The notes: a model not told the origin generated them from the sequence alone. DNA of 63,681 nt from Perkinsus olseni (GCA_013115125.1 JABANN010000134.1:1-63681); one strand, 5' to 3'. Positions 6,329 through 30,618 are shown, counted from the stretch's first letter. Numbers and translations: made by a program.

Positions 6329-8365
6329 ATGAGACTCAATAATCTCTCGCTCGCCATCTTGCTTCCGGCTGCTGTTGCCTTTGAGCCAGTACAGATCGCC
6401 AATGGTCCAATATCTGGACTTGTGGTACGGAAGAATACTACACTACAACAGCCTATCGTCCAGGATGTGGAGATCTTCTACGGCATCCGCTATGCGGAGC
6501 CTCCTGTAAAAAAACTCAGGTTTCGACCCCCTCAGCCCTACACCTCTGAAAACTGGACCTGCGCCCGCCGCATGGTCACGCCTGGAGCTTCATGTGTCCG
6601 GCTGGCCTTGAACTTCCTAGGGGATACTGGAGATATCATTGGCCAGGAAGACTGCCTCTTCCTCAATGTGCATCGGCCCTCAACTGCGGAGTGTGGTACC
6701 TCCCGACTTCCAGTCATGTTCTGGATTCATCGTGGGGGCTATGTTAATGGTCGTGGACTGTCAGACAATGGTACCGCCTTGGCGGCGACACACAACGTTA
6801 TTGTTGTCACGGTGAACTACAGGCTGGGCCACTTAGGATTCTTTGGTTCCCAGAGCTCTCTTTCACAAGAAGGCACAACTGGCAATTGGGGGACCTTGGA
6901 TACTCAGCTAGGTCTGAAGTGGGTCCAACAGAACATCGAGGCCTTTGGTGGGGATAAGAACAGAGTCATGTTGTTCGGAGAGTCTGCCGGGGCGTTTACT
7001 GTTATGTGGCACATCGCAGCCCCGGGAAGTAAAGGCCTCTTCCACCCGGCCATTATGCAATCTGGAACGACTTCGACTCCGTTGTTCTTCCAGAAAAAGA
7101 CAGACTCTTTCAGATATTACGACTGGGTAGCAACTGAACTTGCGGGCTGTCAAGATGCCGATGATCTCGATTGCCTCCGTCGAGTTGATCCAAAGAAATT
7201 GGCCATACCAGATGGAGTCCGCTTTGACTCGGCTCGTGCGCCAAACTGGGCATCGACGTTGTTCCCCAACTTGCCTGTGGGTCCTACTGTCGACGGAGTA
7301 ACACTACCCGACGTCCCCCTTCGTGTGGTTGAGAAGGGTAATCATAATGACGTCCCACTTATCGTGGGGTTCAACAGGGGCGAAGGCTCGCTGTTCGGCT
7401 TTCTTCTCCCGAGAGTGGTCCCGCGTCTCCGAATGCCTCTAAGAGAGCCGGGGCTTCGCAGAACCCTGGACTACTTCTTGCAGAACGAGACCGCTGCCAA
7501 GGAAATCGAAAAGTTCTATCCCCGGGAGCAATACTCCTCTCTCTACGGCCCCGAAAATGGTCCTTTTGAACAGGCTTTCTCCTTCATGAGAGACTCTCTT
7601 TTTCACTGCCCCGGTAGACAACTCGCCGAAGCTCTGGTGAAGAACGGCAAGTCCTCGACCTGGATGTATTCTTTCGACAAACCAGATCTCTTCGGGCAGC
7701 TTGGAAGCTTTCGGCTTGGAATACTGTCTCCTGCTTACGGGAATTCAACTGTGGCCCAGCTGAGCAACTTCCACTCAGCCGAACTCCCATTCGTGTTCAA
7801 GGACTTCGGCGAAAACCCGGCTAACTTCTCTAGACCTTCGCTATCGTTAATCACTAAGTCATATACGGCTCGTCCTCCTCGCCAGCCCCGTGACGCCTTT
7901 CATCGCATTAGCGATGCCTTCTCCTGCATGTGGACTCATATGGCCTCCCATGGAAGTCCGACGGATCCACAGCAACACTGCCCGGGGTTACCTGATGGAG
8001 CTATCCCTCCGTGGTTGCCTTACAACTCAAGCCTCGATGGCTGCCAGGCTCATGGTGTCTACATGCACATCGGCGATCAGTTAAGCATGCAGGCTTGGAG
8101 ATCCAACAACATCTACCCAGATAATGAGATGCCGTCTATTGAACAATGTCAGTTATGGAATGAGCACTCGTTTGAGTTCCGCAACCTTCGTGCCGATCTA
8201 CCAGGAGTAACGACAGCATCTCCAACTACGCCTAGTCCCGCTCCGAACGCACCGACTCTTGCTCCTATCACGCCGACTCCTGCTCCTACCAGTCCTCTAT
8301 CTTCTGCCCACCGCAGAGGAGGATTTCTCCTGGTATTGTTCGGAATCCTGGCGCTGGTGTTATGA
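6329..8365 (+). CDS. Type-B carboxylesterase/cholinesterase-family enzyme; secreted, probably GPI-anchored; intronless (678 aa)
   Basis: Signal peptide MRLNNLSLAILLPAAVA. Family motifs EDCLFLN, WIHRGGY, NYRLG, nucleophile GESAG, acid GFNRGEG and His NFHSAEL. Ends in a Thr/Pro stalk and hydrophobic tail SSAHRRGGFLLVLFGILALVL. ATG 6329 was chosen because the paralog starts at the equivalent position. Confidence 0.92.
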   Translation: MRLNNLSLAILLPAAVAFEPVQIANGPISGLVVRKNTTLQQPIVQDVEIFYGIRYAEPPVKKLRFRPPQPYTSENWTCARRMVTPGASCVRLALNFLGDTGDIIGQEDCLFLNVHRPSTAECGTSRLPVMFWIHRGGYVNGRGLSDNGTALAATHNVIVVTVNYRLGHLGFFGSQSSLSQEGTTGNWGTLDTQLGLKWVQQNIEAFGGDKNRVMLFGESAGAFTVMWHIAAPGSKGLFHPAIMQSGTTSTPLFFQKKTDSFRYYDWVATELAGCQDADDLDCLRRVDPKKLAIPDGVRFDSARAPNWASTLFPNLPVGPTVDGVTLPDVPLRVVEKGNHNDVPLIVGFNRGEGSLFGFLLPRVVPRLRMPLREPGLRRTLDYFLQNETAAKEIEKFYPREQYSSLYGPENGPFEQAFSFMRDSLFHCPGRQLAEALVKNGKSSTWMYSFDKPDLFGQLGSFRLGILSPAYGNSTVAQLSNFHSAELPFVFKDFGENPANFSRPSLSLITKSYTARPPRQPRDAFHRISDAFSCMWTHMASHGSPTDPQQHCPGLPDGAIPPWLPYNSSLDGCQAHGVYMHIGDQLSMQAWRSNNIYPDNEMPSIEQCQLWNEHSFEFRNLRADLPGVTTASPTTPSPAPNAPTLAPITPTPAPTSPLSSAHRRGGFLLVLFGILALVL

Positions 8366-10483: not shown

Positions 10484-12522
10484 ATGGGACTCAATCACCT
10501 TTCACTCGCCATCTTGCTGCCGGCTGCTGTTGCCTTTCAGCCGGTACAGATCGCCAACGGCCCGATATCTGGACTTGTGGTACAGAAAGATACTACACTA
10601 CAACAGCCTATCGAGTGAGATGTAGAGGTCTTCTTCGGAATCCGCTACGCTCAACCTCCCGTCGGGGAACTCAGGTTCCGACCACCTCAGCCCTACACCT
10701 CTGAGAGTTGGACCTCCACCCGTCCCATGGTTACGCCTGGAACTTCATGTGTCCGAGTGGTCGCGAACTTTCTAGGAGACACCGGTGAAATAGAAGGACA
10801 GGAAGACTGTCTCTTTCTCAATGTGTACAGGCCCTCAACTGCGGAGTGTGGTACCTCCCGACTTCCAGTCATGTTCTGGATTCATCGTGGGGGCTATGTT
10901 AATGGTCGTGGACTGTCAGACAATGGTACCGCCTTGGCGGCGACACACAACGTTATTGTTGTCACGGTGAACTACAGGCTGGGCCACTTACGATTCTTTG
11001 GTTCCCAGAGCTCTCTTTCACAAGAAGGCACAACTGGCAATTGGGGGACCTTGGATACTCAGCTAGGTCTGAAGTGGGTCCAACAGAACATCGAGGCCTT
11101 TGGTGGGGATAAGAACAGAGTCATGTTGTTCGGAGAGTCTGCCGGGGCGTTTACTGTTATGTGGCACACATAATGACACCGGGAAGTAAAGGCCTCTTCC
11201 ACTCGGCCATTATGCAATCTGGAACGACTTCGACTCCGTTGTTCTTCCAGAAAAAGACAGACTCTTTCAGATATTACGACTGGGTAGCAACTGAACTTGC
11301 GGGCTGTCAAGATGCCGATGATCTCGATTGCCTCCGTCGAGTTGATCCAAAGAAATTGGCCATACCAGATGGAGTCCGCTTTGACTCGGCTCGTGCGCCA
11401 AACTGGGCATCGACGTTGTTCCCCAACTTGCCTGTGGGTCCTACTGTCGACGGAGTAACACTACCCGACGTCCCCCTTCGTGTGGTTGAGAAGGGTAATC
11501 ATAATGACGTCCCACTTATCGTGGGGTTCAACAGGGGCGAAGGCTCGCTGTTCGGCTTTCTTCTCCCGAAAGTGGTTCCGGGTCTCCAAATGCCCCTAAC
11601 AGAGCAGGGGCTTCGCAGAACCCTAAACTACTTCCTGCAGAACGAGACCGCTGCCAAGGAAATTGAAAAGTTCTATCCTCTGGGGCAGTATTCCTCTGTC
11701 TACGGTCTTGACAACGGTCCCTTCGAACAGGCTTTCGCCTTCATGAGAGACTCCTTATTCCACTGTCCTGGCAGACAACTCGCCGAAGCTCTGGTGAACA
11801 AGGGCAAGTCTTCGACCTGGATGTATTCTTTCGACAAAGCAGATCTCTTCGGCCCGCTGGGAAGCTTTCGGCTCGGAATACTGTCCCCTGCATACGGGAA
11901 TTTAACTGTGGCCCAGCTGGGCAACTTCCACTCAGCCGAACTCCCATTCGTGTTCAAGGAATTCAGCGAAAACCCGGCTAACTTCTCTAGACCTTCGCTA
12001 TCGTTAATCACTAAGTCATATACGGCCCATCCTCCTCGCCAGCCGGGTGACGCCTTCCATCGCATTAGCGATGCCCTTTCTTGCATGTGGACTCACATGG
12101 CCTCCCACGGAAGTCCGACGGGTCCACAGCAACACTGCCCGGGGTTATCTGATGGAGGTATCCCTTCGTGGTTGCCTTACAACTCAAGCCTCGATGGCTC
12201 CCAGGCTCAGGGTGTCTACATGCACATCGGCGATGAGTTGAGCATGTGGCCTTGGAGATCCAACAACGTCTACCCCGATAATGAGATGCCGTCTATTGAA
12301 CAATGTCAGTTATGGAATGAGCACTCGTTTGAGTTCCGCAACCTCCGTGCCGATCTACCAGGAGTAACGACGGGATCTCCAGCTACGCCTAGTCCCGCCC
12401 CTACCACACCTACTCCTGCTCCCACCACGCCGACTCCTGCTTCTACCAGTCCTATATCCTCGGCCCACCACAGGGAAGGATTCCTTTTGATGTCGTTCGG
12501 AATCCTGGCGCTGCTGTTATGA
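10484..12522 (+). pseudogene. Carboxylesterase paralog with a premature stop and a frameshift
   Basis: Collinear with 6329-8365. In-frame TGA at 10616-10618 (CAG in copy 1) and a 2-nt insertion near 11166-11169 (CACACATAATG) just after GESAG. Downstream homology continues to about 12795. Confidence 0.88.
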
Positions 12523-13924: not shown

Positions 13925-16330
13925 CTACAGATAAGCATGAAGACACTGAGTCAACGCTGATGCCTCACCTCCCTCGGGCTGCTCCAGCTCGAGGTTACGA
14001 GCAGCGGATACCTCATTCTCGGGGATGCAGAGTCGGACGCTCTTTCTTGGTGGTCCTGCTGGCTCTGGGCTGAGAGTCTCAATCGTCAAACTCGGGCGAA
14101 AAGGGTCAACGACGCGAGAAAAGTAACGGATGTCGTGGACCCTCGATACCCGACTCACAGCGGGGCAGCTTCCCCATCACTTTGAGTGTCATCGCTTTCA
14201 ACGGACTCGTCATCGGCCATGGTGCCAGACCGCACGAAGCGGGCCGATTTGTCGCAAGTCCGAGAGAGCTGAAAGCAAACGGCTTCGACTCGACTGAGCG
14301 GGTGCCATGGCCCCTACCATAACAGTGTGTGACTTCATCAGTATCGGCATCAAGTCCCGTGTAACACAGTCCAGAGTAGTCTCTCGTCCAACCGTGAAGG
14401 AGCTGTCGTTCCGCGGGGACGAACCGACGCTGACCGAAGCGTGGCGGTTGGCATCCCGTAAGATGGACGTTACGTAGTGTTGCTCGACTTGGAGAGCAGG
14501 TCTCCATGGCCGGCCTCTGATACTCCGACCAACTCGGCATCGCCAGGACAGCTCGGCTGTGTCGATAGAGCTCCCGGTAGGTCCTCACTGCTGCTGCTGT
14601 GGACCGACGAGGTCGGAGTATCTGAGATGCAATCACAGGCGGTATGCCAGGAAGGGCAAGGGCTCACTAGAAGTACACGGGGACGGGGTAACGAGATCGA
14701 GCTGGGGAGAGGCGACTACAGCTTCAGGGATGTCGAGCCGAGTCGACTTGCGCTTGCCTTGCTGAACCGCCTTCCGTCGAACCTGCAACCATTTTTCGAA
14801 TGAGCCCTGGGGGATTCGAACCCGGGACCTCTTGAATATCGCGATAGTCAAGCCGACCATCGCAATTCGCATCCATCATATCGAAGGTAGTACCTGCTCG
14901 TGGTCCGTAACGGAGAAAGCTCAACTCGATCCTCGCTCACCGCAGTATTTTAGATCCTTCTCGTCGATCCTCTGCAGCTGCAGCAGCATCCAGATCAAGA
15001 ACTCATTCCTCGTTATAAACCTTTCATACACATGCTCCTACTGTACTTCTGCGACACCCTTTGAGTCTCACTTCGGACTCTGGCACAAGCCGAGCCTCTT
15101 GAGTTCCTTGAAGGCCTTCGACAGCTGATCGAATGCCCTAGGGTCCAACTCGTTGCCGAACTGATGCAGCACCTACGTGGGAGGTACCCGGAGGCTAACG
15201 CGACGGAGCAGCGACCCACCCTCCGCTCCGCCTTCGCCCGCTGTTTAATAAGAGGTATGCTCGCTAGACTTGACATGGTGCTGGCTCCCACAGCAACTCC
15301 GATAGGTATGAAGAAGATCGTGAAGACCTTGGAGGCGCTGGATGTCAGCTGCAAGTTGCCGTATCCAACAGTGGTCACTGTCTGGACGCACCAATAGAGC
15401 GCCTTGGGGCCACCCCAGCCCTCGAGGAGACCAATCACTCCGGCACCGACGCAGAGGGTCTACATGCGGCAACAGTGGCACGACGAGAGGCGATCAGAGT
15501 CATCTCACGACAGCTAGGCGGGCAAGGGATGTGAGGAGATGTTTCCGAAGGAGCCTATTCTGCATCAGCGACTGCTCGCATCGTTTCATGTGAGATTGTT
15601 GAACCGCCTTGGCCATCTCAGTCTCGGTGGTCTGGACCCACTTGTTGAGCACCTGTCCACATGCTGTATGGTCCAAAGAGCACTGCAGCCCCACACTGCT
15701 CACCAGCCCCGCGGAGTACGCCGCGATGCCGACTCCTAGGATGAGGTAGCAACAGGCAAATATGGAGCTGGTCGTATCCAGAGGGAAGCTCATGTCACCA
15801 TATCCAACTGTCGAACCCGTGACGATGAGAAAGTATCTAAGCTCACGCCATCTAAAGGAATCAATATTTATCCGACGGCGTAGGTGAGAAGGCGCCGGCC
15901 CGATGCAATCTCAATGGCAGCTACGAGCCTCGGACAGGATATAAGCCAGGCGATCGACGCGCGGTCCCCAAGACTACGTTGAATCCACTAGACTCCATCC
16001 GGCCCAACAGAGGCAGTAGAGCAGTCCTGCTCCAGTGTAGAAGGATATGCAGATGATGGAGTGCTTCCACTCTTCCCAAGGCGTCTCTTCGTCCTTCAGT
16101 GAGCGTAACGAGGAGTGCTCTTCGTTCTGATGTACTCGACCATGGCTGGACTCTTGCCGACTCGGAGAGCTCGATGGGGATTCCAGCGGCACAAAAGGTG
16201 ACGATGGCGTGAAGGGGCAAATCATAGGTAGACAAACAAGCACTGTGGACTGGGTGAGTGATACAGGAGCGCCAGTCAGCCATGCTTGACTTATACACAC
16301 AGTAACTCCTTTGAGAGGAAGCCCTATCAT
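13925..16330 (-). CDS. Two-pore-domain K+ channel (plant TPK/KCO-like) with a C-terminal EF-hand; multi-exon
   Basis: Two selectivity filters (YFLIVTGSTVGYGD near 15800, ALYWCVQTVTTVGYGN near 15360), four hydrophobic segments, EFLIWML and EF loop DANCDGRLDYRD. Start is 16225 or 16330. The tail through ORFs 14106..14636 and 13925..14158 is tentative. Confidence 0.85.
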
Positions 16331-16381
16331 TCAATCCCATGATGAACACTCTTCATGCAGCATTGGATGGCAGCAGTTGAA

Positions 16382-18314
16382 CTACCCCGCTATAATCTTC
16401 ATCAACTTGCTCTTTCTGCCTCTCTTCTCAGGCGTCTTTTTCTGTTTGGCCGGCGAGACAGCAGGGCTGCCAGCTGAGCTTTGTCCGCTCATTCGAATGG
16501 TTTCTTCCTCCATGATGGCGCTTGGGTCGAAGCCGCCGCCCACATCACTGCGGGAGATGTCTCCGACTGTAGCCGGGGCGACGATGTCGATCGCAGGACT
16601 TCCTCCTGGTTGCGCGGATGCTCCGGCTGCTACTGGTGTCTTCTGTTGAATATCGCTGCTTGCGAGGGTTATTACCTATAAAAGCGGAAAGCTTTTCACT
16701 ACCGGCTGCTGATAAGGCCGCGGAATCCTAATGAAGTTCGCTCGTTCACTCTCGAACGCGATGGTCGAACCGAGGCTCCCTGCCTTACTGTCTTAGCACT
16801 ATGGGAAGGCACGTGACTTAGCTGCCCTGGCTGGCGATGAGCATGCACGACGTCGATGGCATTCCTGCATAACGTAGTCACACCGCGGCAGAAACCTCCC
16901 CGAACTTACACTTCATCGAATGGGTTCAGAGATGGAGAAGGGAAGGGATTGATACCTGTTATGAGTGGTTGGGTGCCAGGCGGATGTGCACCGTCGTGCC
17001 AGCATGACCTTCATGACTTCCGCCAGCTCGGATCGACTCGGCTCTTCTGTAGACGCTTGCCAACGGTCTCGTGCACTCCTCCATCTCTTTCGTTATCGTT
17101 GACAAGTATGAGCATAGCTGACAGCAGCGAGATCCATAAGGCTTTGCATCAAGCGGAAAGGAATGGAGCGATGCCTACCAGGCCAAGCAGCGTGACGAAC
17201 TCCTTTTCGCGGGTGGCCAGCACACCACTCAGCCTGTCTCGGGCCTCGCGATCCATCTCCTCGAAGGAATGAGTCGCCACACTGTGCTTGAGCTTGTTCT
17301 GACATTCATAGTGTCGAAGCGAACCCTCGCTACCGGCTTCGCTAGCCTAGTCCCACCCTGTCGAACTTCTCGGCAGGAGTTTTCTTAGAGCCCTTCAACT
17401 TCTTCACTTTCACTTCATAATGCGCCATTAAATTGTGCGCACGATCACGGTCTCTGAAGGGTCAGCGAGGCAAGCATAGTTCCCGTCAAGCGCCTGAAGC
17501 TTCTCGACGACGGCCAGCAAGCGCCATCACCGATTGAAGTGGATTGGTTCTCCCTTGTCCGCATATACGGAGAACCGCTGAGCCCGAGGAGCACGCTGGT
17601 CATCTTGGATGCACCACGGGTCACCAAGATGTAGGCAGAATGTGGTACGGAGAACGATCGAATCACCGAGCAGCACGAAGCGTCCCTGCTCTTACGTAAG
17701 CATAGTGCCAATATCTGACCCCTGCTTCATCAGCTTGCTCGATGCAAACTTCATGCCCTCTAGGTTACTGCCTCTACCACGGATGGTGGTCTTGAGGTGG
17801 TCCAAGGCTTCGCTCATAGTCAGCCTTATTGGTGCGTACTGAATACCCGATGGGAGGTGGAAGAGGGAACACACCGACCGCGGTCCTAGGCGGGAGACCG
17901 CCTACCGGGTTCTCATCCGGGAAGAATGACTTGGCGGACTCCATCAGCTCGTTATTGGCGCTCGCGAGCTGCTCCATGATCCTGGACAGCGTGTCCACGG
18001 TGGTGTTGAATATCTGTGCCAAGAAACGCCAACAAGATCCATGGCATCGGTGACTTGGGTAAAGATATTCTTATTCGTGCCACGCACCAATTCCACTCGG
18101 AGACCGGAAATAATAATCCGAGTCCCGAGAGGACCTTGCAGCGTTCGAAGAAGTCCGAGGCCATCGCTCTCTCCCCATCGAGTGGGTCCCCCTTGATCCG
18201 CTTTACTCCTCGAATCTGTTGATAGAAATACTTTGAACACCTTAACACCCGTCCGGGAATGGTCACCTTCTCCTTAATTTTGCGGAGTGTCTTGGATTTC
18301 TCAAAGAACGGCAT
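16382..18314 (-). CDS. BAR-like coiled-coil protein, paralog A
   Basis: Spliced model MPFFEKSKTLRKIKEK|IRGVKRIKGDPLDGER...TDRDRAHNLMAHYEVKVKKLK..KFDR|NKLKHSVATHSFEEMDREARDRL, followed by a low-complexity tail ending KLMKIIAG*. Confidence 0.7.
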
Positions 18315-18698
18315 TCCGCTTGGAAGCAATAATCAACTGGCAATACATTACATCATGCACTCCCAGTGTGTAATGGAGCCTTTTCATCGCGGCTCGCCAA
18401 ATGATGAGGCAAACCCTACCGCACATGGGACTCATCACGCGAGACTTTTGACCGCCACTGAGGGGAAACGCTCAACGGCTCCTATCTGGGTAATTGACTA
18501 ACGCAATGGGTGTCGCTTGCAGTGATACTATTGCTCGTACGTTATAGGCATCAGCTCAAAGAGAATAATTATTACCGGAGTGCTTTTCGATATTAGCGGA
18601 TAGTCGACCGTAAGGGACATGATACATAACAATGCTGCTTCCTTGCATGGAGATGATGACGATGATACTACAGAAAATGAGAGATGGCGGCGGTGGAG

Positions 18699-19892
18699 TT
18701 ACACCATCATGAAGGGCGCTGAAGGGGCGTCCCTCTTTTGCTCACTCATCGGGACCTCGTAACTAAGACAACGACAATTATGACTGAGCCGCCATAGAGG
18801 GTCCCAAGACTTACGGTGCTATCCCCGACATAGACTGGTTGATAATGGATGCACCAGAATTCTGATTGTGGAACGGGAAGGGGTCCTCATCACGCTCCAC
18901 TTGCTGTCTGACCATCGACGGTACTTGGTCAGTGAAGGTTGTTATACCCTGCATGCCAGCCGACGCAGTCACTCCCAGGTACCGGGAGTACTGACAGGGA
19001 AACACTAACAACGAGAGGAGGCTGCAGAGCAACAAACTCACCTCTGCGATGATCTTGGCAAAGTCAGCATCCTTCCCTTCGAGCAGCTGCGACATCTCCG
19101 CTCTTACTTGATTGTCCAGCATGATGAAAGACTCTTGTGCCATACGGTGCTTCTCGACATTCTGACACCTCTAGCTCCGCAAAGAGAGACGCTTCTCATG
19201 CCTACCCGTGCCAGTCTCTCCTCACCCTTGACATCCTTTTTAGAACGTTTGGAAGCATCCGTCTTGAGGTCCTCAATCTTATGGTTGTAATGGTCGAGGT
19301 CTGCATACGCCCGGTCGCGGTCCTTCAACTTCTGCTGCAAGTCCGCGTTGCGCTGCACTAGCTTCTGTGCCTCCCCCACAGCCGCCTGTAGCTGCGGTCG
19401 AGAGGCCTGAGCCGACTGCTGACACCGGCTCAGCTGGTCAGCGAAGAGGGAGATGGACGGTGCATACTGAGGAACGTGAGCAACTGCTGATGGCACGCAA
19501 GAAATGGCGACTCACCCCGCTTTCCTGGGTAGAACTGGGCGTGCTCTCAGAGGGAGTTACCACGTCTCTAGATTGCTTGACAATATCCAACTGGGTGGCG
19601 GCCATTTGATCGGTCAGATTGAGCAGCTTCACCAACTGCTGGTGAAAAGCCTGAAGAGGCGAGCGATGCCTTGAGTACGCCGCTACACTTTGCCCTAGAC
19701 CTTGCCTGAGCCTTAGCCGCATGGTCCAGTAACGCAGCCCTTTGCTTCTCCAGCGGGTCAGATGATATCGCCTTGACACCAATAACCTGAGCATCAGAGA
19801 TGCGCCCACAGTGTGACTTGGAGGAGCCTCTGGCTGCTGTCACGTACCTTGTCGGTGAGATTCCGCCAAGTCTTGCTTGCAAATACTACCAT
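18699..19892 (-). CDS. BAR-like coiled-coil protein, paralog B
   Basis: MVVFASKTWRNLTDK|VIGVKAISSDPLEKQR...RDRAYADLDHYNHKIEDLK..KGEERLAR|NVEKHRMAQESF...|YSRYLG. The 3' end is uncertain. Confidence 0.75.
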
Positions 19893-20596
19893 ACACTGGT
19901 ATTGGACAGTAATGTACTACCAGAGGGGCAACACTCCCAACTTACAGCGAGGGCCGCCTTCGATTCAACGCAACAGATAGTGAAAACGGTAGTACCTTCG
20001 ATCAGTACACTGGAAAGGTTACGAGTAAATAAGGGCGCTGAATGATTAGATAGGAGCCAGAGGGAGGTAGAAGGATCGCTAGTAGAACCCGAGCTCTCCC
20101 GCCTTCCGACTGAGTACGGTAAGACTGCTTCTCTGAAGGAAAGCGCCCATTGGGTGGCTGGGTGTTGACAGCGTGGCCATGCCCAGTCCTGGTTTAGCAG
20201 TAGAACTTGAGGCAAAAGCCATCAGCAGAGGAAATGCCCTCCCATACGTATAACGGAGAGCATTCTGATGGACAACAGCACCCAGCCAATCGAGTTATCA
20301 GCGACGATTCAGTCACTGATCCACCACCACCAGCCCACAAAACACTCGGCGATCGAGAAACAGCACAGTGACTAGGGCGGCGTACTATTGGAGTATAATA
20401 TGCCCATACCAAGGACTCTAGAGGGCCAACAACCCACATGTAGAGTCTCTGGCAGGAGCTCAGCCCTGGAATGATGAGTCAATAAGACAATGTTAATTGG
20501 AGGAATGGTTTCGACTATGAGGGTTTGAATGGGACAAATCGGCCGATCACTGAAGAAGCCGCGGGCCCTGGCGGCACCTGCCCGCGAGGGGATAAC

Positions 20597-22015
20597 TCAA
20601 TGCTTGACGGCAAGGCACGGGTTCAAGTCGAAGGATGAACGGTCGGCGATCGCTGGGCTCGTCGGCTGGCCCAGGCGCTCAGGTGTCGCTGTGGACTCCA
20701 CTGTGCGGAGTAAAACCGGTGGGCTAGGTAGTGAAGCAGCTGGATGACCGGAGGCCAACCTTCACCTGAAGATGACAACACTCGAGGATCATCACAACTA
20801 CCAGGAGGCGGGGAATTTACGGTATTATGAATCGCAGGTCAGGAGGCGGAGCGGCCTTTCTTACATTTACACGAAGAGGCTCCCAAGTCACGCCGCCCTC
20901 AAGTCACGGAATGGCTTACGATGCGAGCCCAAGCATTGATTGCTCAATAATGGATGCACCGGAATTCTGATTGTGGAAGGGGAAGGGATCTTCATCACGC
21001 TCCACTTGCTGTCTGACCATCGACGGTACTTGCTCAGTGAAGGTTGTTATACCCTGCATCCCCGCAAAGGCTGAGACTCCCAGGTACCGAGAGTACTGAC
21101 AAGAGGTAGGCACTGCGAAGAAGCCTTGTCGACTGTATCGCGCACCTGGGAGAGTATCTTGGCGAAGTCAGCCTCCGTCCCTTCGAGCAGCTGCGACATC
21201 TCCACTCTGACTCTCTCATCCAGCTGGATGAAGCGCACTTCCGCCATACGGTGTTTCGCCACATTCTGACACCTCTAGCTCCACAGGGAATGGCGCTTGC
21301 CTCACCTACCCGTGCCAGTCTTTCCTCTCCCTTGACATCCTTTTTAGAACGTTTGGAAGCATCCGCCTTGAGGTCCTCAATCTTATGGTTGTAATGGTCG
21401 AGGTCTGCATACGCCCGGTCGCGGTCCTTCAACTTCTGCTGCAAGTCCGCGTTGCGCTGCACTAGCTTCTGTGCCTCCCCCACAGCCGCCTGTAGCTGCG
21501 GTCGCAACGCCTGGAGAGACTGTTCACATCTGCTCAGCTGGTCAGCGAAGAGGCATATGGCCTGTGCATACTGAGAACAAGGCAAATCCTCGGTACCGTC
21601 AGCCTTCCGAGAGTATACTACTACCCCAGCCCCGCTGTCGGCAGTAGAGCAAAGCGTGCTCGCCTCCTCGTCCTTGGCAGGAGGAGCGATCACTTCCCGC
21701 GACTGTCTTGTTATCTCCAGCTGTGCGCTGCGGATCTCGTCCGTCAGATTGGAGAGTCGTACCAACTGCTTGTACAGGGCCTGATAAGTCGAGCTAGCCG
21801 TAACCGAGGCCACAACGGCTCACCTCAGCCTTGACGGCGTGCTCCAGGACTGCCGCCCTCTGCTTCTCCAACGGATCGAACGGAATCGACTTAACGCCAA
21901 CAACCTGGCAAATCGACAGTGGCCACCAGCTAACGGTTGAGGCGCAGCTGCGAGCCCACCCCTTCACTACCTTAGCAGTGAGATTTCGCCATGTCCGGCT
22001 CGCAAAAACAACCAT
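20597..22015 (-). CDS. BAR-like coiled-coil protein, paralog C
   Basis: MVVFASRTWRNLTAK|VVGVKSIPFDPLEKQR; same motifs and intron positions as B. The 3' end is uncertain. Confidence 0.75.
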
Positions 22016-22248
22016 AAAATAGTACTGGAATTATGATCAACTGCAAGAATAAGAGCAACCCTTCCTGGTCCTGGACCAGCCCCAACGAAACGCAAGTGAA
22101 TAGAAACCCTTGGGCACCACAGAGGAAGCAGAGAACAACAAGCGATTAAATTTTGAAAGATTCGTCACGGAGATGAGTCAGGAGCGGCAGAAGTCTACCA
22201 AATTGAGATGTACTACGATGATGCTTCTAGCAGATAATAATTACCCCT

Positions 22249-23509
22249 TCAGGCAACCGGAGGCAGCTGCGGATAGGCCGAGTCACCATCGCCAACTACT
22301 TGGACGTCAGCAGGAATAGGAGTGTCTTTTTTCGGTCCTTCCTCAGCAGGAATTGGAGTATCTTTTTTCGGTCCTTCCTCAGCGGGAATTGGAGTGTCTT
22401 TTTTCGCTCCTTCTTCAGCGGGAATAGGAGCGTCTTTCTTAGCTTCTTCCTCTACCAGGCCAGGGATCTCTCTGCTGTACGTGTCCACATCCTTGCCGTC
22501 TCCTGCCGCTATCACGCCGATGTATCGTGAGTACTGAAGACAGTACCATGTACGGTCGAGGACAACACGATAGCCCCCCCACGCCACTGCTGGTGTTGAC
22601 TACCTCCGCTATGACCCTGGCGATTTCCCCAACCTTCTGCCCGACGAGTCCTTTCATATCGTCACGCACCTCCCGATCCAACGCGGTGAAGCGCTCTTGG
22701 GCCATGCGATGCTTATCAACGTTCTGACATGTGGCAACCGAAGAGTTCGACGAGAAGCCTTCACACGGATGACCTATTTCACAACAGTACTCCCTGCCTA
22801 CCCTAGCTAGCCTGTCATCCTCCTTCGGATTGGGCTTTGATTTCTTAGCCAGATCAGCCTTGAGATCAGTGACTTTTTGGTTATAGTGGTTCAGCTCGTC
22901 AAAGGCTCGATCGCGACTCCTCAGTTTCTCCTGCAGGGCACCGGTACGTTTGACCAGTTCCTGCGCCGCTATCTTGGTCTTGTCCAGCTGCGGCCGGGCA
23001 TCACGCGCGGTTTTGTTCTGCTCTGCCACACGGTCCACGAATGTAGCTGTTGCCCGGCTGTACTGAAGGATAAGTAACCAATACATCTCCATGAAGAATC
23101 CACTTGACTCTAACGCCCATTCATCGCGCCAGGTTCACGTTGACGGATGCAATAACAAGACAGCGAGCACCCTCCGTACCCCGTCTGTGGGCTCCTGAGC
23201 TCCTTTCCTGTCTCTGCCCACTAACGTATCCTCATCCTCCTCAGGAGCATCGATGAGCTGAATGTCTTTTAGTATATCCTGACGTACTTTGGTAACCTCA
23301 TCCGTCAAAGTGAGCAGACGAACGATGTGCTGATGTAGGGCCTGGAGACACGAGGAAGGTTACGCATAGTACCAGCCCAGGCAAGATCAAGAGGCCCCCG
23401 CTATTCTCACTACCTGAACTCGTCCTGCATAGTTGGCCAGCTCCTTTCTCTCCTTCTCCAACGGATCGGAAGTGATTGCCTGCACACCCATAACCTGATC
23501 AGCAACCAT
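22249..23509 (-). CDS. BAR-like coiled-coil protein, paralog D, with a 12-aa repeat tail
   Basis: VMGVQAITSDPLEKER...RDRAFDELNHYNQKVTDLK..KEDDRLAR|NVDKHRMAQERF|YSRYIG. The start may be further upstream (ATG 23613). Confidence 0.75.
22308..22450 (-). repeat. Coding tandem repeat, 36 nt x about 4 (KKDTPIPAEEGP)
   Basis: Near-identical 36-nt units such as cagcaggaataggagtgtcttttttcggtccttcct. Confidence 0.9.
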
Positions 23510-23967
23510 CTCTTCAACATAACACACCGACAGCAGGCGCGACTGAAGCAGTTCCAACCCCAACGCCTCTAAGAATGTCGAATAGGAGAAACGCAGGGCT
23601 CATTCCCTCCAGATATCCACCCTACTACAGTATTCGTCAAATTCCGCCAATGCCTACTGGAGAACACTACCATTACTGTCTAATAAAAACAATAGAACGC
23701 TGAATAACGAAAAGATGGAGGATAACTCAGCAGCCTGTCGCAAGCACCCTTCATTCTTGTAGGGTAACCTCCACTAAAGCCCATTGATGCCAGGACAACA
23801 ACAAAACAAAGTCGCATACTTCAAACGGGGAAACACACCGTCTTGTCTACAACGACAAGATTCCATTAAAACACACTTTGGTGATAATAACTAACCCGCA
23901 GGGTCGTCAATAGTGACGACTGCTGGGCATATGAATAGAGGCTTGCGAAGAACCCTTCAGTCTCCTT

Positions 23968-24964
23968 TTACTCATCTTGAACGATGGTAACCTCAGCGCC
24001 TCCGATGACTCTGTGACGCTCGCCCTCATCCTGCTCGTCATCATGATGATGCCTGTGATTCTCCTCCCCATCACTCGAAGACGCAGAGCCTTCACGATGA
24101 TGACGTCTGCCGAAGAGACCACGGCGACTACTGTGGTGACCACCTTCGGACGCAGAGCTGCCGCTGCTGCTGCTCGAAGATGACGACGAAGAGCTGCTAG
24201 AATCGTGGTCAGTAGAGCGCTCGGCCATGAGGACAGGCTCCGGAACATCTCTCATACCACGGCGAACCTCACGCGGGACGTTCTTGACCAGAACCGACGC
24301 GCTCTCACCAGCAGGGGCGCAGAAACCGAGGAAGCGGGAATACTGAAAGGAGAAAAGATGAGGTAATCGAAGTTGGATCGAGGGAGAGGTAAGAGCTAGC
24401 GAAAGCAGATTGAGGCTCTTACCGGCGAAAGCATCTTGGCGTAGTCAGCACCGGGGCACTCCACCGACTGATACACTTTCATAGCAGTACCACGATCAAT
24501 AGCTCCGAAATCCTCTTCAGCCTCGAGACGCCTGTAATGGGCAGCAACCTGAGTGGATAAGCAATGTAGAGGGAATGACAAGACTAACCGAGATATGCTC
24601 ACCGCATCAGCCCTAGAAAGAGCACGGTCCATCTTGGGCTGAGCGCTTTCGACGGCATTACGCCAGGCTTCTGCCTGCGTTAGATACATCTTGCAGGCTT
24701 CACGGAACTGAGCAACAAGAGAGCAAAATGGACCATAGAGTCTACCAAGACAAGTCCGTCTCTTACGTGATCGCTCTCGCGGTCGCCAGCCTCATTAATG
24801 AGCTGCTCCTCGAATAAACGAGCAACCTCTGTCTGGGCCTCGGCCAACTTCTCCATGTAGTGCTTGACCTTCTCCATCTCATCCTTCAAGTGCTCAGAAC
24901 GTTCAGCACGCTGCGGCAAACTCTCCTTGAAATTCTCGAGTCTGTCGCCGTCCATGTGCTTCAT
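23968..24964 (-). CDS. BAR-like paralog E, internally shortened, with a Ser/His-rich tail
   Basis: MKHMDGDRLENFKESLP...KLAEAQTEVARLF..|FREACKMYL..AQPKMDRALSRADA|VAAHYRRLEAEEDF..ADYAKMLSP|YSRFLG; poly-Ser and His-rich C-terminus. Confidence 0.65.
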
Positions 24965-26151
24965 GGTTTTGCAAGGCTCCGAGCACAGGTCCCTGAGCAT
25001 GATGACAGAGCCAAGGCTTTGTTGGGGTCCTTGCAGGAGATTGGTGATTACGTTAGCAAGCTTGACGAGGCGCAGCAGGAGGCCGCCAGGCTGTTCCGGA
25101 ACGAGCTCATGGCGCCGACGAGTTGTGCCATCAATCATGATGTAACGAGCTTGGGGTTACTTGAGGGGTCTCTTCTTAGCGTAGTTTTTCTCATTCGTGG
25201 TCCGAGTCGCAGACCTTGCATCGGTCTTGCTGTGACGGTATTCGTGGGAGCACTAACGATAGTAGGACCAGTTCAGAATTGACGAACTCGATAGGCCTGA
25301 AAGAGCCAATATATGAAAAGGGGCAGCTACTTAATATTCTTCTTCTCAGTACTCTCAAGCATGCACGTTATTTGTGAATCAATTAAACGCTATCCACGAG
25401 TCGATTCTAGACGCCCAGTGTGAGCTCGCTGGTGCGGTATGCTTCGCTGAGGAGATGGTGGATCGGAACCATGATATACAACGTCGCCTCCTGCAACGGG
25501 ACAGGAGTAATGGTCAACTTAAGCGATGTATCATGAACGTTGAGGAGCTCTCACAGAAGGCTTCCAAACACAAGGGCCGCGACTATGACCGGCAGATCGT
25601 CGAGGTACGGCTACTCAAGCTTCTCGTGTGCTACTGCATCAAAGGCGGCTCTCAGGCACTTGACAAATACCACGCAGCTGAGCGAGAGGCAGAGACTTTG
25701 GACCGTTGTGTCACGGCGGATCTCAAGGCACTTATTGAACACCAGAACACTGACTACGCGAGGGTCTTGGCACCGGTAGGCAGCTCTTACGATGGTCGAT
25801 GTGACGCATTCTTCTGGTCAGTTCTCTCGGTATCTTGGGGTCGCTGCATCGACTGAAGCCAACACGGCCTATATACTGGCAAAGAAGGTACCTAACATAC
25901 TTCGCTCCGCCGTCCACGAAGATTTAACCTCTAATCGGCCGCCTTGTGTACCGAAGCCGAACGAGGATGAGGAGGGCGTTTCGGCTGCTGGCGGTACCAT
26001 CGATGCTCGTCTAGAGGAGACGCCTGATGATGCATGCAGGAGAAGGGCTAGCGGCACCGCGAGCCAACCTGATAATAGTGCCGAGGCTCCCGGTGGAGGC
26101 TCCGCATCTATTGATGTCACCGAGGACGGTCGGCAGGGACCAAGTTGTTAG
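24963..26151 (+). CDS. BAR-like paralog F, inverted relative to the array; start codon ambiguous
   Basis: Exon FARLRAQVP...KLDEAQQEAARLF aligns with paralog E. Later exons YSQACTLFVNQL..RDRSNGQLKRC..|ALDKYHAAE..TDYARVLAP|FSRYLG. ATG 24963 is one base out of frame with the first exon. Confidence 0.65.
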
Positions 26152-27527
26152 ATTAAGCATTGCCCGAGAGTCGAGGGGCGTCACGCACCCGGTGACTGAG
26201 TCAGCTTATCATTTTGTAGTAGTCCCTAGAAGGCGACTGAGACAGCCGTGTACATTATCCGCCCATAATTTTTAACTGCCCACTCGAGAGCTGGGAGTTC
26301 GCAAAAGTCGAACCCTTGTGTGTTTTTGTGCCAGATAGACGACTCACTCTGTGCTCTCCCGTTGATGTCTTGTTAAATCTATTGTATACTCATACGGGAG
26401 TTTCCTTGCCAAGCGGTTGGGTTTCAGTGTAAAAATTCAGCAGCACGGTGGCTCTTGTCGAGTAGAAACAAGGAGGTGGCGCTTCACTCAGTAACTGGCT
26501 CTGCAGGCGACTTCAAGTTGCCTTAGTCATCTTGTCTCCTCACTTTCATCTGGTACGAGGGTAAGATGATGCTGAATGCTGTCGCAGGGGTCGAACGCTT
26601 GCTCTTGGCTTTCCTGGTTGGTCGGGATTGCTCTCACTGCGAGTTTTCTTGGATTCTCGCGAACCCATTCACGTCAAGCTTCTTTCAAAACACGCCTACT
26701 AAACTAGTCTTTTTGAACGGTTAGTTCTCTTGAATTGGGCATTACGATTTTCACAGACCTGCGAGCTTCTTCCAAATGCTTCATCTTCTCCGAACCTTTT
26801 CCTGCTGCTCGAGACCCACAAGAGAGGTCCGCCACAGGAAGTCCTTCGCGACCTGAGAGTCTTCGTCATATGCTCAACGCGAAGTTGACAGCAGTAACAG
26901 CTTAGTTGTGATGACTGTAAGACGCTAGTGTCACAATGTCTCGTTTTGCACAATAGCTGGGCAAGCTACTGCTGTACACGAAGTCATCATTGTATTGTAT
27001 TTAGAGTGAGTGAACGCTATTGTCATCTGCAGGTTTGATTCTTTGTTGTTGTTTTTACTGTTATAAGAATGGATTTTGCTGAAGAAGGCGATTGGAGGAT
27101 CCTCTCCTGTAGACAGGGTAGCAGCGGAAGATGCGGATCTCTGCCGTGACGGTGAGGTCACCTCATTACTTCTCGTGGATTCGTTCTCTGCCATAGAGAA
27201 AAATCGAAACTCGTAACTGAAAATCTCGGACCACCGCAGGTAACGGGCCGCGGCCACCAGGTTGGGCCAACGCCAATCTAACACAACAACAAGCATCGAA
27301 AATAAGGTCTTTCACTCAAAGAAGATGTGTTATAAAAATAAGAATTCCACCACACAACGGCAGACCTAGTGGTGCGGGCCAAGACGATGAGGTGACGATG
27401 AACTGTAGCGAGACTAATGCCCCGCGAACTAAAATCTTTCAAACTCGCCAAGAGCAGACATTCGGGATAAGCCAGCACTGCTCTTGGCCTGTCTCTTGCA
27501 CAAATCGTTATGATGAGTAGTAGTCCC

Positions 27528-28908
27528 TTAGCATGTCGACTCAACCTTCGCCACAGGGGTGGTGGTTGAAGCACTACTACATTCGCCTCTGTCAGTCAAG
27601 TCTTTACTAGCAGCTTCTGCCGCCTTCTTGTTAGCCCTCACTTGCTCCTCCCTCAGCGCCTTGTTACGATCCACAGCTTCGGGTATTTCCTTGGTAAAGA
27701 CTGGTACGCACGAGGCTGAGGACTGGACGTTAGTCGCTATGTAAAGGCACATCTGAGAGAGTGCTCCATCACGATAGAAAGGGGAAAAGTCCAACTTCTA
27801 TATTCAGACTTTTCTCCAGGAGATTTACGACCATATGCGCCGAGATACCCACCAACTGCCAGCCTCAACAATTCCCATGTAGTTTTACGTTCTCCAGTAT
27901 TTGAGAAAAGTCCGCTTGACGGCCCTCCAACAGCGAAGTGACTGCCGATCGACAGGAGTCGTCGATGCTTTGGAAGTTAGACACGGCATCCTCCTGCTTG
28001 ACCATGTTCTGACGAAGAAGAGCAAGTCACCCGCTTCTCCCGACGCCACAGTAGCACTACCCTCTTTATTCTGTCCTCCAGTGCCTTCTTGGGCTTCTTA
28101 GCTTGCTCTTCGTTCAACGCAGAGAGCTTCTCTTTGTAATGGTCCACAACCTCAGCGGCCTTGTCCCTTTCGTTGAACTGTGTGACCAGGTTAGTAAGTC
28201 TCTCTACCAGCGTCTCCGCTACCGCAATGGAGTCGTTGAGCAAGGACCTAGTGTTCTCCTTAGAGGCTCCCATTATCTCTATTTGACTGGCAAATAGCTC
28301 TCCCACCTGGGCATACTGAAGGCGCAAGACAACAAACATTCACAGGCCGCAGCGAGACAGAGACTCTCTCACCTGAGGGGAGGTGTCGCTGTAATTAACC
28401 GGAAAATCGCCCTCGCTGAGAGGGATGAGGAAGCTCCTTGCCTGCCGTACTACATCATCTCGAATAGCACCCATCTCATCGACATTCCTTTGGAAGTTGA
28501 CGAGTGTGGCGTGCAGATCCTGAAGAGCACGGCTGCTTTCAATAATATAATCCTCTGCCACCCAGAGACTCTCGAGGGTTGAGATGGTGACGAAGTCACG
28601 ATGCAAAAAAAGTCAAAGGGCAGCCTAGCTGTGCTCCTCACTGAGAAGCCCTCAGTGACCTCAAACACACCGTTGCTTGGGCGTAACGAGTACTACTGTC
28701 TCGGTTCCAGCCCTACACCCGGTCATTGATGCCCACCTTTGCTTTGGCAAGATACTCCGTCACTTCTTCTCGCGCTTTTTGCAGAGGATCCTTCTTGTCT
28801 GGCTTCACTCCGAATACCTGTCAAGTCGGTCAATGATTCCGCACCGTGGACTACCGCCTAGCATACCGAGTCTTTGAAGTCTCTAACGGTCTTACTATAG
28901 AATGGCAT
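27528..28908 (-). CDS. BAR-like coiled-coil protein, paralog G
   Basis: MPFYSKTVRDFKDS..VFGVKPDKKDPLQKAR...FNERDKAAEVVDHYKEKLSALNEEQAKKPKKALEDRIKR|..|MCLYIA. Confidence 0.75.
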
Positions 28909-29188
28909 TAATTGGTAATATAATACTGCGTGACAGAAGCCTCTGGCGGGTCCATGCATCCTCACAAGTTCATTGAAATCACTGGAACCCGGAGCTACTC
29001 CCTCTGAAGGTGAAGGCAAGAGCCGCGGAAGAAACTTGTCTTGCTACTAGTACATCAAAGGGCAAAAGAATGCCTCGAGAACAGTACAGCCCGAGCCTTT
29101 ACGCGAGCCGCAGTTGAATGAGCTTCTGAGCACTACTACATACACTCGAGAGAAAACCCCCAACATGGGTACAGTGGAAGGGCATAAA

Positions 29189-30453
29189 TCACTGCCTTGC
29201 CGCCTCATCCGCCGGGGTGGCTGGTGAGGGATCAGGCTTAGTAGTATCTTTGGTCTCAGCAGTACTCGGTTCCTTATCAGGCTCATGATCTCCCTCAGTC
29301 GAGGACGCTGTTGGGGTGGCTACTTCGGACGGCTCCTTGGCCGTTTTAGAAGTAGTAGGCGCCTCTGCAGGTTTCTCGGCGGCCTAAGGGAATCACGTGT
29401 TCGGCTTCCCACGAAGGCGATGATGCTACCTTGGCAGCCTCTTCCCTAGCAGCTCGTGCCTTCTGCAGATTATCCTTACTGTCTTGTATCATTGCTGGTA
29501 TCTGTTCCTCGAAGGCCGGTATGGCAGCCGCCTGTGATTTGCTGTTCTTGGCGATGTAGGTGCACATCTACAAAAACAAGACATCAGCTACTACTACCGT
29601 TGCCAGCGCTCACCTTCTGAAGGATATTCGCAAAGTCAGTCTGACGATTCTCCAGGACCTGGTTGGCCTCGGTCCTCACTTCAGTGTCGACACGCTTGTA
29701 GGCCTCCACAGCGTTCTGCTGCTTCACCAGATTCTAAAGGAGCGAGAGTCTTCCTTCACTGGTCAGCCCCATCGCCTTACTCTCTTAATCCTGTCATCCA
29801 TATCCTTCTTAGGCTTGCTAATATGCTCCTCGCTCAAAGCCTGCATCTTCACCTTATAATGGCTCATCAGTTCAGCGGCCTTATCCCTCTCGTTGAACGC
29901 TGTGGTCAAGTCATCAAGCCTTCTCTGCATGGCGGAGGCCTCACTAACCGCGTCATCCAGCAACTGCCTTGTATCCTTCTTAGAGTGGCTTATGCTGTCT
30001 ACCTCCGATGAGAACAGATTCCCAACTTTGGTCAGCTGAAAATCAAAACAAATGCTGTGAAACGAACAGACTGACGTGACCCAACTGACCTCGGGATCTG
30101 ATGCAACCTGCAGCCCTCCCTGCTGATCCATCGGCAGCAAGAAGGCCTTTGTCGTCTTCACAACATCTCCCCGTACACCGTCGAGCTCGTCATTGGCCTT
30201 AGCAAACGCCTGCAGGGTTTGACAGAGTGCCTGAATAGGGCGGTTACCACCAATCCGGAGCAAGTCTCCCGGCCTACCTTGGCATCCTTACTGTACGCAT
30301 CAACTGCTAGACGAGTGGCCTTCAGGGGATCCTCATCCTGCTCCTTCACGCCGACGATCTGAGACAAAGTTCCTTCGATCAAGCTTGATGGTGTGGAGGC
30401 ACCGAGCCTACCGAATCTTTCAAGTTCCTGAACACTTTACTTGAGAATGGCAT
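29189..30453 (-). CDS. BAR-like coiled-coil protein, paralog H
   Basis: MPFSSKVFRNLKRFG..QIVGVKEQDEDPLKATR...FNERDKAAELMSHYKVKMQAL..KDMDDRIKR|NLVKQQNA..|MCTYIA; ends ADEAARQ*. Confidence 0.75.
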
Positions 30454-30618
30454 ACTTTCTAATTAGATGAAGAAATACTAAACTGAGTCAACCAATGATC
30501 CATTAGCCACTCCCCGTGGACAGCTATTCTACCACTAAAACGAAACAAGAAGCCTGCATAGGAACAGCAGACGTGGGAGACGTAGACCGAGCTTCGGTCG
30601 ATCGGACGGAAGGAGAGG

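Follow-up and report, generated by a model that had tools for sequence, protein, structure and literature searches.

Described BAR proteins offer several points of reference for the locus analysed here, an array of eight genes at positions 16382-30453 of a 63,681-nucleotide stretch of DNA from Perkinsus olseni (GCA_013115125.1 JABANN010000134.1:1-63681; this whole stretch is called the window below). Rvs161 and Bin3 are BAR-only proteins and obligate heterodimer partners of Rvs167, and they provide a precedent for heterodimers of paralogues. The linear motif NPF binds EH domains, and DPF and DPW bind the appendages of AP-2. An earlier note, made from the sequence of the window alone, had described the array as a clustered, lineage-specific family of divergent BAR-like genes, whose products would possibly form heterodimers and serve cortical, alveolar or host-interface remodelling. 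Of the alveolates, Toxoplasma gondii has TgBAR2 (TGME49_320760; J Biol Chem 2024), a protein of 357 amino acids which is reported to consist of a BAR domain and a disordered tail with no SH3 domain, to be located at the cell periphery and the inner membrane complex (IMC), and to tubulate anionic liposomes (PMC11615899). According to that paper the concave face of TgBAR2 is extremely basic, an amphipathic helix was not found, two BAR proteins are described, and no apicomplexan BAR protein is said to have been characterised earlier (PMC11615899). We found no paper on the Perkinsus genes of the array or on a Perkinsus BAR family.

Our analysis identified the array as a tandem expansion, specific to the lineage, of a domain type that is known but divergent. 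We consider it likely that it consists of eight tandem paralogues with an SH3-less classical (amphiphysin/Bin-type) BAR core, which belong to a divergent subfamily that includes the red-algal protein 3CAZ and which act by the mechanism proposed in the Discussion. The BAR interpretation has good support where fold and family are concerned.

RESULTS

The array consists of eight intron-rich paralogues

The eight paralogous genes occupy the region between the stop codon of gene H (16382) and the ATG of gene G (30453). Read from high to low coordinates, the minus strand carries seven of them (G, F, D, C, B, A, H); the plus strand carries the main part of gene E, which sits between D and F. Canonical copies are A, B, C, F, G and H, six in all; E has diverged and is split, and D is without the central conserved block. 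The spliced models were written by coordinates from a three-frame reading, and their open frames and splice dinucleotides were checked by script. The models are as follows.

16382-18314, minus strand: gene H, 373 amino acids, 10 exons (18314-18267, 18215-18135, 18013-17906, 17838-17696, 17453-17357, 17298-17179, 17117-17009, 16955-16910, 16864-16789, 16675-16382)
18699-19892, minus strand: gene A, 293 amino acids, 7 exons (19892-19848, 19786-19706, 19650-19516, 19466-19206, 19161-19042, 18990-18815, 18762-18699)
20762-22015, minus strand: gene B, 280 amino acids (exons 22015-21971, 21904-21824, 21780-21625, 21570-21310, 21265-21146, 21095-20920, 20765-20762, the last with one base and then the stop codon)
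22249-23673, minus strand: gene C, 317 amino acids, 6 exons (23673-23629, 23494-23414, 23341-23180, 23062-22802, 22723-22604, 22533-22249)
23968-24964, minus strand: gene D, about 267 amino acids (exons 24964(?)-24767, 24707-24603, 24548-24423, 24342-23968)
24969-26151, plus strand: main part of gene E (exons about 24969/24989-25141, 25350-25604, 25656-25775, 25822-26151)
27528-28908, minus strand: gene F, 289 amino acids, 6 exons (28908-28867, 28817-28737, 28519-28373, 28315-28061, 28008-27889, 27752-27528)
29189-30453, minus strand: gene G, 323 amino acids, 7 exons (30453-30412, 30358-30278, 30230-30090, 30035-29781, 29733-29614, 29567-29430, 29383-29189)

The sequence is eukaryotic, with a G+C content of about 52% and introns of 43-242 nucleotides (nt), and the encoded proteins are small (267-373 amino acids). 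All but one of the 43 introns in the spliced models are GT-AG; intron 2 of gene A is GC-AG. Intron positions and exon sizes are conserved across the copies: the second exon, which encodes the GVK..DPL motif, measures 81 nt in six of the eight, the helix-3 exon 120 nt in seven (126 nt in D), and the helix-2 exon 261 nt in A, B and C and 255 nt in E, F and G, while in H it is split into 143 + 97 nt by an extra intron and in D it is reduced to 105 nt. The spliced models together with the blastp comparisons bear out the earlier description of eight related genes in tandem over this span, and the exon sizes agree with its statement that intron positions are mostly shared.

Judged from the protein sequences, the similarity between copies is far above chance. 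In blastp comparisons A and B were 77% identical (E 1e-160), A and C 44%, F and G 44%, A and F 33%, and E and A 31% (E 6e-24); H showed about 24% identity to other copies (E 1e-13 to 1e-22). Gene D matched E with 23% identity over 222 amino acids (58 bits, E 1.5e-13) and A with E 1e-8. When pieces of one copy were compared with the window by tblastn, related segments were found at about 19.0-19.9, 22.4-23.7, 25.3-25.9, 27.9-28.8 and 29.5-30.4 kb, and a six-frame scan with a profile hidden Markov model (HMM) found no further copy in the 63.7-kb window. An HMM built from 49 non-Perkinsus members of the family recognised the six canonical copies with 115-148 bits (H 143, F 139, G 122 and C 115 bits) and gene E with 33.6 bits.

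The motifs described earlier for the array vary in their distribution over the copies. GVK..DPL is present in A, B, C (as GVQ), F, G and H. The RD(R/K)A...HY..K block is present in the same number of copies, six of eight, is reduced to RDR in E and is absent from D. Y/FSR(Y/F)(L/I)G occurs in A-E and is replaced by MC(L/T)YIA in F and G and by LCSYLS in H. The partial copies had previously been given as E and F; in the lettering used here they are D and E.

The ratio of nonsynonymous to synonymous substitutions (dN/dS) between A and B was 0.21 over 273 codons; for A-C, B-C and F-G it was uninformative, as dS was saturated. Within the helix-2 exon (19206-19466 in A and 21310-21570 in B, minus strand) 64 of 65 consecutive residues were identical, against 77% overall, and gene conversion between these neighbours is possible.

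Sequence profiles and predicted structures place the copies in the BAR superfamily

The top match in the PDB for every profile of the family was 3caz_A, a 'BAR protein' of Galdieria sulphuraria. Its E-value was 0.0062 with a profile made from Perkinsus sequences only, 1e-19 with a profile of 57 sequences, and 5.9e-15 with a profile of 39 sequences from which every member matching the Pfam BAR clan had been removed. The alignment spans helices 1-3 (59-75 bits over about 260 positions) and includes the signature RD.A..HY..K...RN..K, the Y, K, R and N of which are invariant in the 57 family sequences. This signature is complete in A, B, C, F, G and H, partial in E and absent from D. The 57-sequence profile also reached Bin1 (1.5e-4, profile positions 8-225) as well as amphiphysin and Bin2 (0.002-0.07), weaker E-values which are to be discounted because the profiles cross-match unrelated helical bundles. 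The Pfam BAR family PF03114 gave sub-threshold scores of 16.3-19.2 bits in five of the ten Perkinsus proteins scanned (P0002, P0003, P0005, P0006 and P0011). When 44 of the 92 family representatives described below were scanned, three passed the cut-off of a BAR-clan family (PF03114 with 51 and 42 bits, Vps5 with 28.4 bits). A match to an SH3 domain was found neither in the Perkinsus proteins nor in these 44 representatives by Pfam, in agreement with the failure of the first reading to recognise this domain in any copy.

Structure prediction gave a consistent picture. P0006, a hypothetical protein of P. olseni that is identical to gene A over the exon pieces compared, was modelled by AlphaFold2 with a pLDDT of 84.8 and a pTM of 0.72, with helices at residues 5-16 (short), 28-82, 98-169 and 175-258. 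A Foldseek search of this model against the PDB had as its best matches Bin2 (TMt 0.73-0.76), amphiphysin (0.73), APPL1 (0.70), arfaptin (0.70) and FAM92A (0.69). The model of P0105, an E-type protein, had a pLDDT of 80.1 and formed a three-helix BAR domain without the N-terminal helix, with Bin2 matched at TMt 0.82 (root-mean-square deviation 3.2). Over both predicted models the TMt to the BAR domains of Bin2, amphiphysin and Bin1 was 0.68-0.82, and the matches listed in the two Foldseek searches were all BAR-superfamily domains (BAR, N-BAR, F-BAR and I-BAR).

A homodimer of residues 1-236 of P0003 was predicted with an ipSAE of 0.76, compared with 0.00 for the best control. The runs agreed in at least 95% of contacts, and the pLDDT of the partner was at least 84. 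In this model the two chains are antiparallel and the interface is symmetric (residue 31 touches residue 31); it involves residues 13-53, 63-79 and 180-225 and, like that of BAR dimers, draws on helix 1, helix 3 and the beginning of helix 2. Of 30 proteins solved as pairs of one chain, 21 attained the score mark applied, and of 23 solved as single chains none did. Of the structure anticipated in the earlier note, the predictions returned the three-helix BAR fold, in the P0006 and P0105 models, and a symmetric homodimer in silico. Taken together, the 3CAZ profile matches, the AlphaFold models and the Foldseek matches bear out the BAR-like reading.

Copies of the array are transcribed and spliced

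RNA contigs from four public runs were aligned to positions 16300-30600, and 15 of the 39 splice joints are listed. All 15 coincided with introns of our models (six of six in A, three of five in F, six of six in G), and each was present in all four runs. They include the GC-AG intron of A and the joint to its seventh exon (18762-18699). At least A, F and G are therefore transcribed and spliced. Contig pieces also ended at exon borders in B, in C at 22533 (runs X1 and X3) and in D at 24342 (X1). At the last junction of B the contig pieces of four runs ended at 20763, which is equivalent to the 20765 junction given a 2-nt ambiguity.

Loose contig ends were found at 19918 (gene A; X1, X2 and X3), 22042 (gene B) and 30484 (gene G), and their reverse complement matched the Perkinsus spliced leader PmaSL1, for which the sequence as printed in PMC3101222 was used. 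These ends indicate that the mRNAs of A, B and G are trans-spliced 26-31 nt upstream of their ATGs. At 28927, ahead of gene F, a mere four leader letters preceded adapter sequence and the spliced-leader junction is uncertain. For gene H, no contig covered 16300-18207 in the four RNA runs, which is not evidence of silence.

The GC-AG intron of A (19651-19705, minus strand) had its joint in four of four RNA runs. P0006 uses another site at this intron, and the nine extra residues in helix 1 that result show up as the low-confidence stretch 41-48 of its AlphaFold model.

Gene D is reduced and gene E is split by an inversion

Gene D still encodes helices 1 and 3 and the first part of helix 2, lacks the RD.A...HY..K block and ends in a poly-Ser/His tail. 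It scored 8.8 bits with the full-family HMM. D is a degenerate member of the array, with a putative start at 24964(?).

The plus-strand part of gene E has no in-frame ATG ahead of the helix-1 region and no N-terminal amphipathic exon. P0104, a P. olseni gene model, is 100% identical to E over exon 25350-25604, and both P0104 and P0105, the P. chesapeaki orthologue, show E to begin with a Ser-rich segment that ends in ..GEDPL and leads directly into helix 1. We located the missing beginning downstream of F, on the other strand. The match to the N-terminus of P0105 was made by eye, and tblastn did not report this short Ser-rich stretch.

27096-27194, minus strand: first 33 codons of gene E, up to ..GEDP, separated from the rest of the gene; the stop codon of F lies 335 nt upstream
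24969-27094, no strand assigned: about 2.1 kb, inverted in comparison with P0104, in which F and E share a strand, and with P0105, in which E is intact

A 5' piece on the minus strand with the remainder on the plus strand is as expected from a 2.1-kb inversion of 24969-27094. Each breakpoint is placed with an accuracy of about ±2 nt; the left one adjoins the probable start of D, and the right one falls within the first coding exon of E. No long flanking inverted repeat was found at the breakpoints. Over the right breakpoint, a contig of run X1 followed the window collinearly from 26068 to 27752 with 0 differences, so this junction at least is not peculiar to the present assembly. About 20 nt separate the helix-1 exons of D and E, which are arranged head to head and are 36% identical at the protein level. 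A first E exon on the plus strand within intron 1 of D (ATG near 24728) had been considered, and was dropped once the 5' piece of E was found at 27194-27096.

Two further observations concern transcripts at E. The RNA contig over 26068-27752 runs unbroken from the last exon of F through a 1.4-kb spacer to the 3' end of E, and represents either a very long 3' untranslated region of F or overlapping convergent transcripts of F and E. Inside the unusually long (208 nt) intron of E, about 85 nt at 25242-25330 were matched by very abundant RNA contigs with two to six differences and foreign flanks. The word depth of these contigs was about 9400 in run X1, one matching contig (X11) had a spliced-leader end, and Rfam gave no match; the stretch probably has sequence in common with the 5' end of some highly expressed gene elsewhere. 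The spliced-leader end of X11, at 25325, was rejected as the 5' end of D, since its contig shows six differences from the window over about 85 nt and is probably derived from a related locus.

The N-terminal segment, core charge and tails differ among copies

A separate first exon of 42-48 nt encodes a basic segment in A, B, C, F, G and H; the D and E types are without such an exon. In the P0006 model this segment forms the helix at residues 5-16, with a pLDDT of 66-84. The best 14-residue windows at the N-termini of the six copies had hydrophobic moments (muH) of 0.47-0.81 and net charges of +1 to +6. The short, basic helix predicted for six copies would fit the amphipathic N-terminal helix (H0) of N-BAR domains that had been proposed; its amphipathicity is moderate only, and D and E do not have it. 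The peptide VFRNLKRF, one of the two that had been put forward for this role, reads through a splice donor, and the exon ends in ...VFRNLKDS. H is the most basic copy, with a core net charge of +10. At the tip between helices 2 and 3, six copies have 4-8 Lys/Arg in 20 residues.

As had been noticed from the sequence, tails of different subtypes are unrelated: that of C contains a K/P/E-rich repeat of 12 residues in four copies, that of D is poly-Ser/His, and that of G is rich in Pro, Thr and Glu. An acidic DPF motif is conserved in the tails of A and B, and the tail of H has two NPF motifs. We counted such motifs in 91 family representatives (14,168 tail residues) and in 1000 shuffles of the tails. 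NPF occurred 28 times in 15 proteins (shuffle mean 1.8), DPF 16 times (shuffle mean 2.5) and DPW 8 times (shuffle mean 0.5). Together the three motifs occurred 52 times in 23 proteins, compared with a shuffle mean of 4.6 and a maximum of 12 (0 of 1000 shuffles reached 52), counts that are not independent, as they come from related proteins and internal repeats. In the N-terminal and BAR parts of the family they occurred four times in all. A clathrin box was not found in the family tails. NPF, DPF and DPW are thus enriched in the tails, and the motif counts suggest that the wider family consists of endocytic or trafficking BAR scaffolds that would recruit their partners by linear motifs and not by SH3 domains.

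The family is wider than Perkinsus and the gene order is conserved

An initial protein search with the array returned exclusively hypothetical proteins of Perkinsus olseni, P. chesapeaki and P. marinus, and the closest public relatives of the array proteins are P. olseni proteins. Searching 1.84 billion cluster representatives with a Perkinsus-only profile gave 92 proteins at E <= 1e-3, some of which may, to judge from composition, be dinoflagellate-like; the family also has a ciliate member (Litonotus) and a red-algal one (3CAZ). In a tree of 87 of 99 sequences (229 columns; 12 short ones were left out, D among them) seven window copies and five Perkinsus-like representatives formed one clade with a support of 0.929. 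Within it F and G grouped with 0.999 and A, B and C with 0.86, and H branched first. The expansion in Perkinsus and its clustering are thus supported by the clade and the array, and the family itself, with its 92 representatives, the Litonotus member and 3CAZ, is wider than the lineage to which it had been assigned.

Other Perkinsus assemblies contain A-, C-, E-, F- and H-type orthologues, and several public gene models join neighbouring copies. P0097 of P. marinus, named 'merozoite surface protein 3g, putative', fuses C, B and A; P0098 fuses B and the start of A; P0104 fuses F and E. These fusions keep the gene order of the array, which indicates that the array predates the split of P. marinus, P. 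chesapeaki and P. olseni, and they provide the synteny in related genomes that the earlier note had called for. The public model P0011 matches gene H with 82-94% identity per exon and skips exon 2. Public gene models at the array are unreliable, with neighbours fused, the name 'merozoite surface protein' misapplied, an exon skipped and part of an intron retained. The UniRef name of P0104 is 'BAR domain-containing protein', so automatic annotation had already recognised the BAR domain for at least one copy.

Other genes in the window

The array has unrelated neighbours: two carboxylesterases, a two-pore K+ channel, a tRNA-ligase-type phosphodiesterase, a pseudouridine synthase and a 2OG oxygenase. 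Rfam gave no match at its gathering score anywhere in the window. Three of these neighbours were placed as follows.

5876-8362 and 10619-12519, plus strand: two tandem carboxylesterase-family genes (PF00135, 321 and 218+97 bits)
15016-15910, minus strand: two-pore-domain K+ channel, just upstream of the array (two Ion_trans_2 matches)

DISCUSSION

We propose that dimers of the array proteins would bind curved membranes through their concave face and the Lys-rich tip between helices 2 and 3, and that in A, B, C, F, G and H the short basic N-terminal helix would assist this binding. The divergent, disordered tails would give each copy its own partners, and the DPF motif of A and B and the NPF motifs of H would connect these copies to AP-2 or to EH-domain endocytic machinery. 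The array may have arisen by duplication in the Perkinsus lineage before P. marinus, P. chesapeaki and P. olseni separated, followed by sub-functionalisation, in the course of which D would have lost its distal arm; in this haplotype E would have been disrupted by the inversion.

A number of results weigh against this proposal. The gathering threshold of Pfam BAR (PF03114, 28.5 bits), the check that had been suggested for these genes, was reached by no copy, with 16-19 bits at best. P0004, P0007, P0008, P0009 and P0105 had no PF03114 match at E <= 1, and C-, F- and E-type proteins are among these. The family profiles also match unrelated coiled coils, including, at E 1e-9, a five-helix bundle engineered from a spike protein. 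Among eukaryotic proteins 17 of 29 attained the dimer mark, but only one of the seven without an older solved relative did, so that the predicted dimer may have passed from the model's memory of solved BAR dimers. As for the individual copies, about 50 residues of helix 2 are missing from D, which the non-Perkinsus HMM did not recognise (0.2 bits, not significant), and E is split in the window sequence. The cores of E, F and G are acidic (net charge -8, -7 and -3, respectively), the N-terminal helix is just moderately amphipathic (2-14% of shuffles reached the observed moment), and NPF or DPF occurs in three of the eight window copies only (A, B and H).

Alternative readings were weighed against the same observations. 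The one that survives best, which we nevertheless consider improbable, is a BAR protein of the arfaptin or sorting-nexin kind, whose main partner would be a small GTPase (Arl/Arf/Rac) or a coat on compartments resembling the Golgi or endosomes, as in the biogenesis of secretory organelles, and which would not act in plasma-membrane endocytosis. Arfaptin was indeed among the best structural matches (TMt 0.65-0.76), with the SNX1-SNX5 BAR domains at 0.59-0.71; one distant family member, P0016, passed the Vps5 (PF09325) cut-off; and five of the eight window copies have neither NPF nor DPF. However, the profiles reached Bin1, amphiphysin and Bin2 and not arfaptin or SNX chains at E <= 1, no PX or other SNX domain was found in the Perkinsus proteins scanned, and the enrichment of NPF, DPF and DPW in the family tails suits endocytic machinery better. 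It is very unlikely that the proteins are generic coiled-coil scaffolds of the cytoskeleton or cortex that resemble BAR domains by the chance of having three long helices and have no function in curvature. This would account for the unmet Pfam threshold and the cross-matches to unrelated helical bundles, and Pfam scans of single exons gave no PF03114 and just weak matches to coiled-coil families; yet sequence composition does not explain the alignment to 3CAZ, which is full-length and contains the motifs, the Foldseek matches listed all belong to the BAR superfamily, and the predicted dimer has a BAR-type interface. Also very unlikely is an array in large part decaying, with few working genes and pseudogenes from recent duplication, since against the loss of the central block in D and the splitting of E by the inversion, with no start codon on its strand, stand six copies with complete open frames and canonical splice sites, the splicing of A, F and G as modelled, spliced leaders on A, B and G, the A-B dN/dS of 0.21, and the A-, C-, E-, F- and H-type orthologues of other Perkinsus assemblies.

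Going beyond the classical BAR core that we favour for the array, a more far-reaching idea may be put forward tentatively, as one we think doubtful. The 3CAZ-like proteins could be an old, undescribed family of SH3-less N-BAR endocytic scaffolds in alveolates, red algae and others, plugged into EH-domain proteins and AP-2 through NPF/DPF/DPW tails and standing in for amphiphysin and endophilin where these are said to be missing; the Perkinsus products could mix as homo- and heterodimers to build coats of different curvature or with different targets, for instance at micropores.

The BAR proteins of alveolates are barely characterised, and the array supplies candidate components of the machinery that curves membranes during endocytosis and cortical traffic in a mollusc parasite. 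A second use of the array is as a natural series of paralogues, with basic or acidic cores and with or without an N-terminal helix, for the diversification of BAR curvature and partner choice.

Comparison with known BAR proteins

The red-algal protein 3CAZ belongs to the same sequence family as the Perkinsus copies and, like them, has no SH3 domain and a short tail; the signature common to 3CAZ and the family can be written as RD/TD..(Y/A)....HY..K...L and R(I/L).RN..K...A. Unlike the array, it is a single protein, known as a structural-genomics entry, and its TMt to our models was only 0.36-0.59. We found no relevant paper on it.

The N-BAR domains of amphiphysin, Bin1, Bin2 and Rvs167 (PF03114) gave the best structural matches (TMt 0.68-0.82) and weak full-length profile matches. 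The likeness extends to the layout of an N-terminal basic helix, a linker and helix 1, and to a homodimer through helices 1 and 3, as modelled here. Amphiphysin-type tails carry AP-2 or EH-type linear motifs, as do the tails of the family. In contrast to the amphiphysin group, the Perkinsus proteins have no C-terminal SH3 domain, the family tails have no clathrin box, and the Pfam scores are sub-threshold; the proteins are also much shorter and are encoded by eight tandem copies.

TgBAR2 resembles the Perkinsus copies in being an alveolate protein of similar size with a BAR domain, a disordered tail and no SH3 domain. It differs in that six Perkinsus copies have an N-terminal helix exon and that a strongly basic core is found in H only. 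On these shared features TgBAR2 is the nearest experimentally characterised analogue of the proteins encoded by the array.

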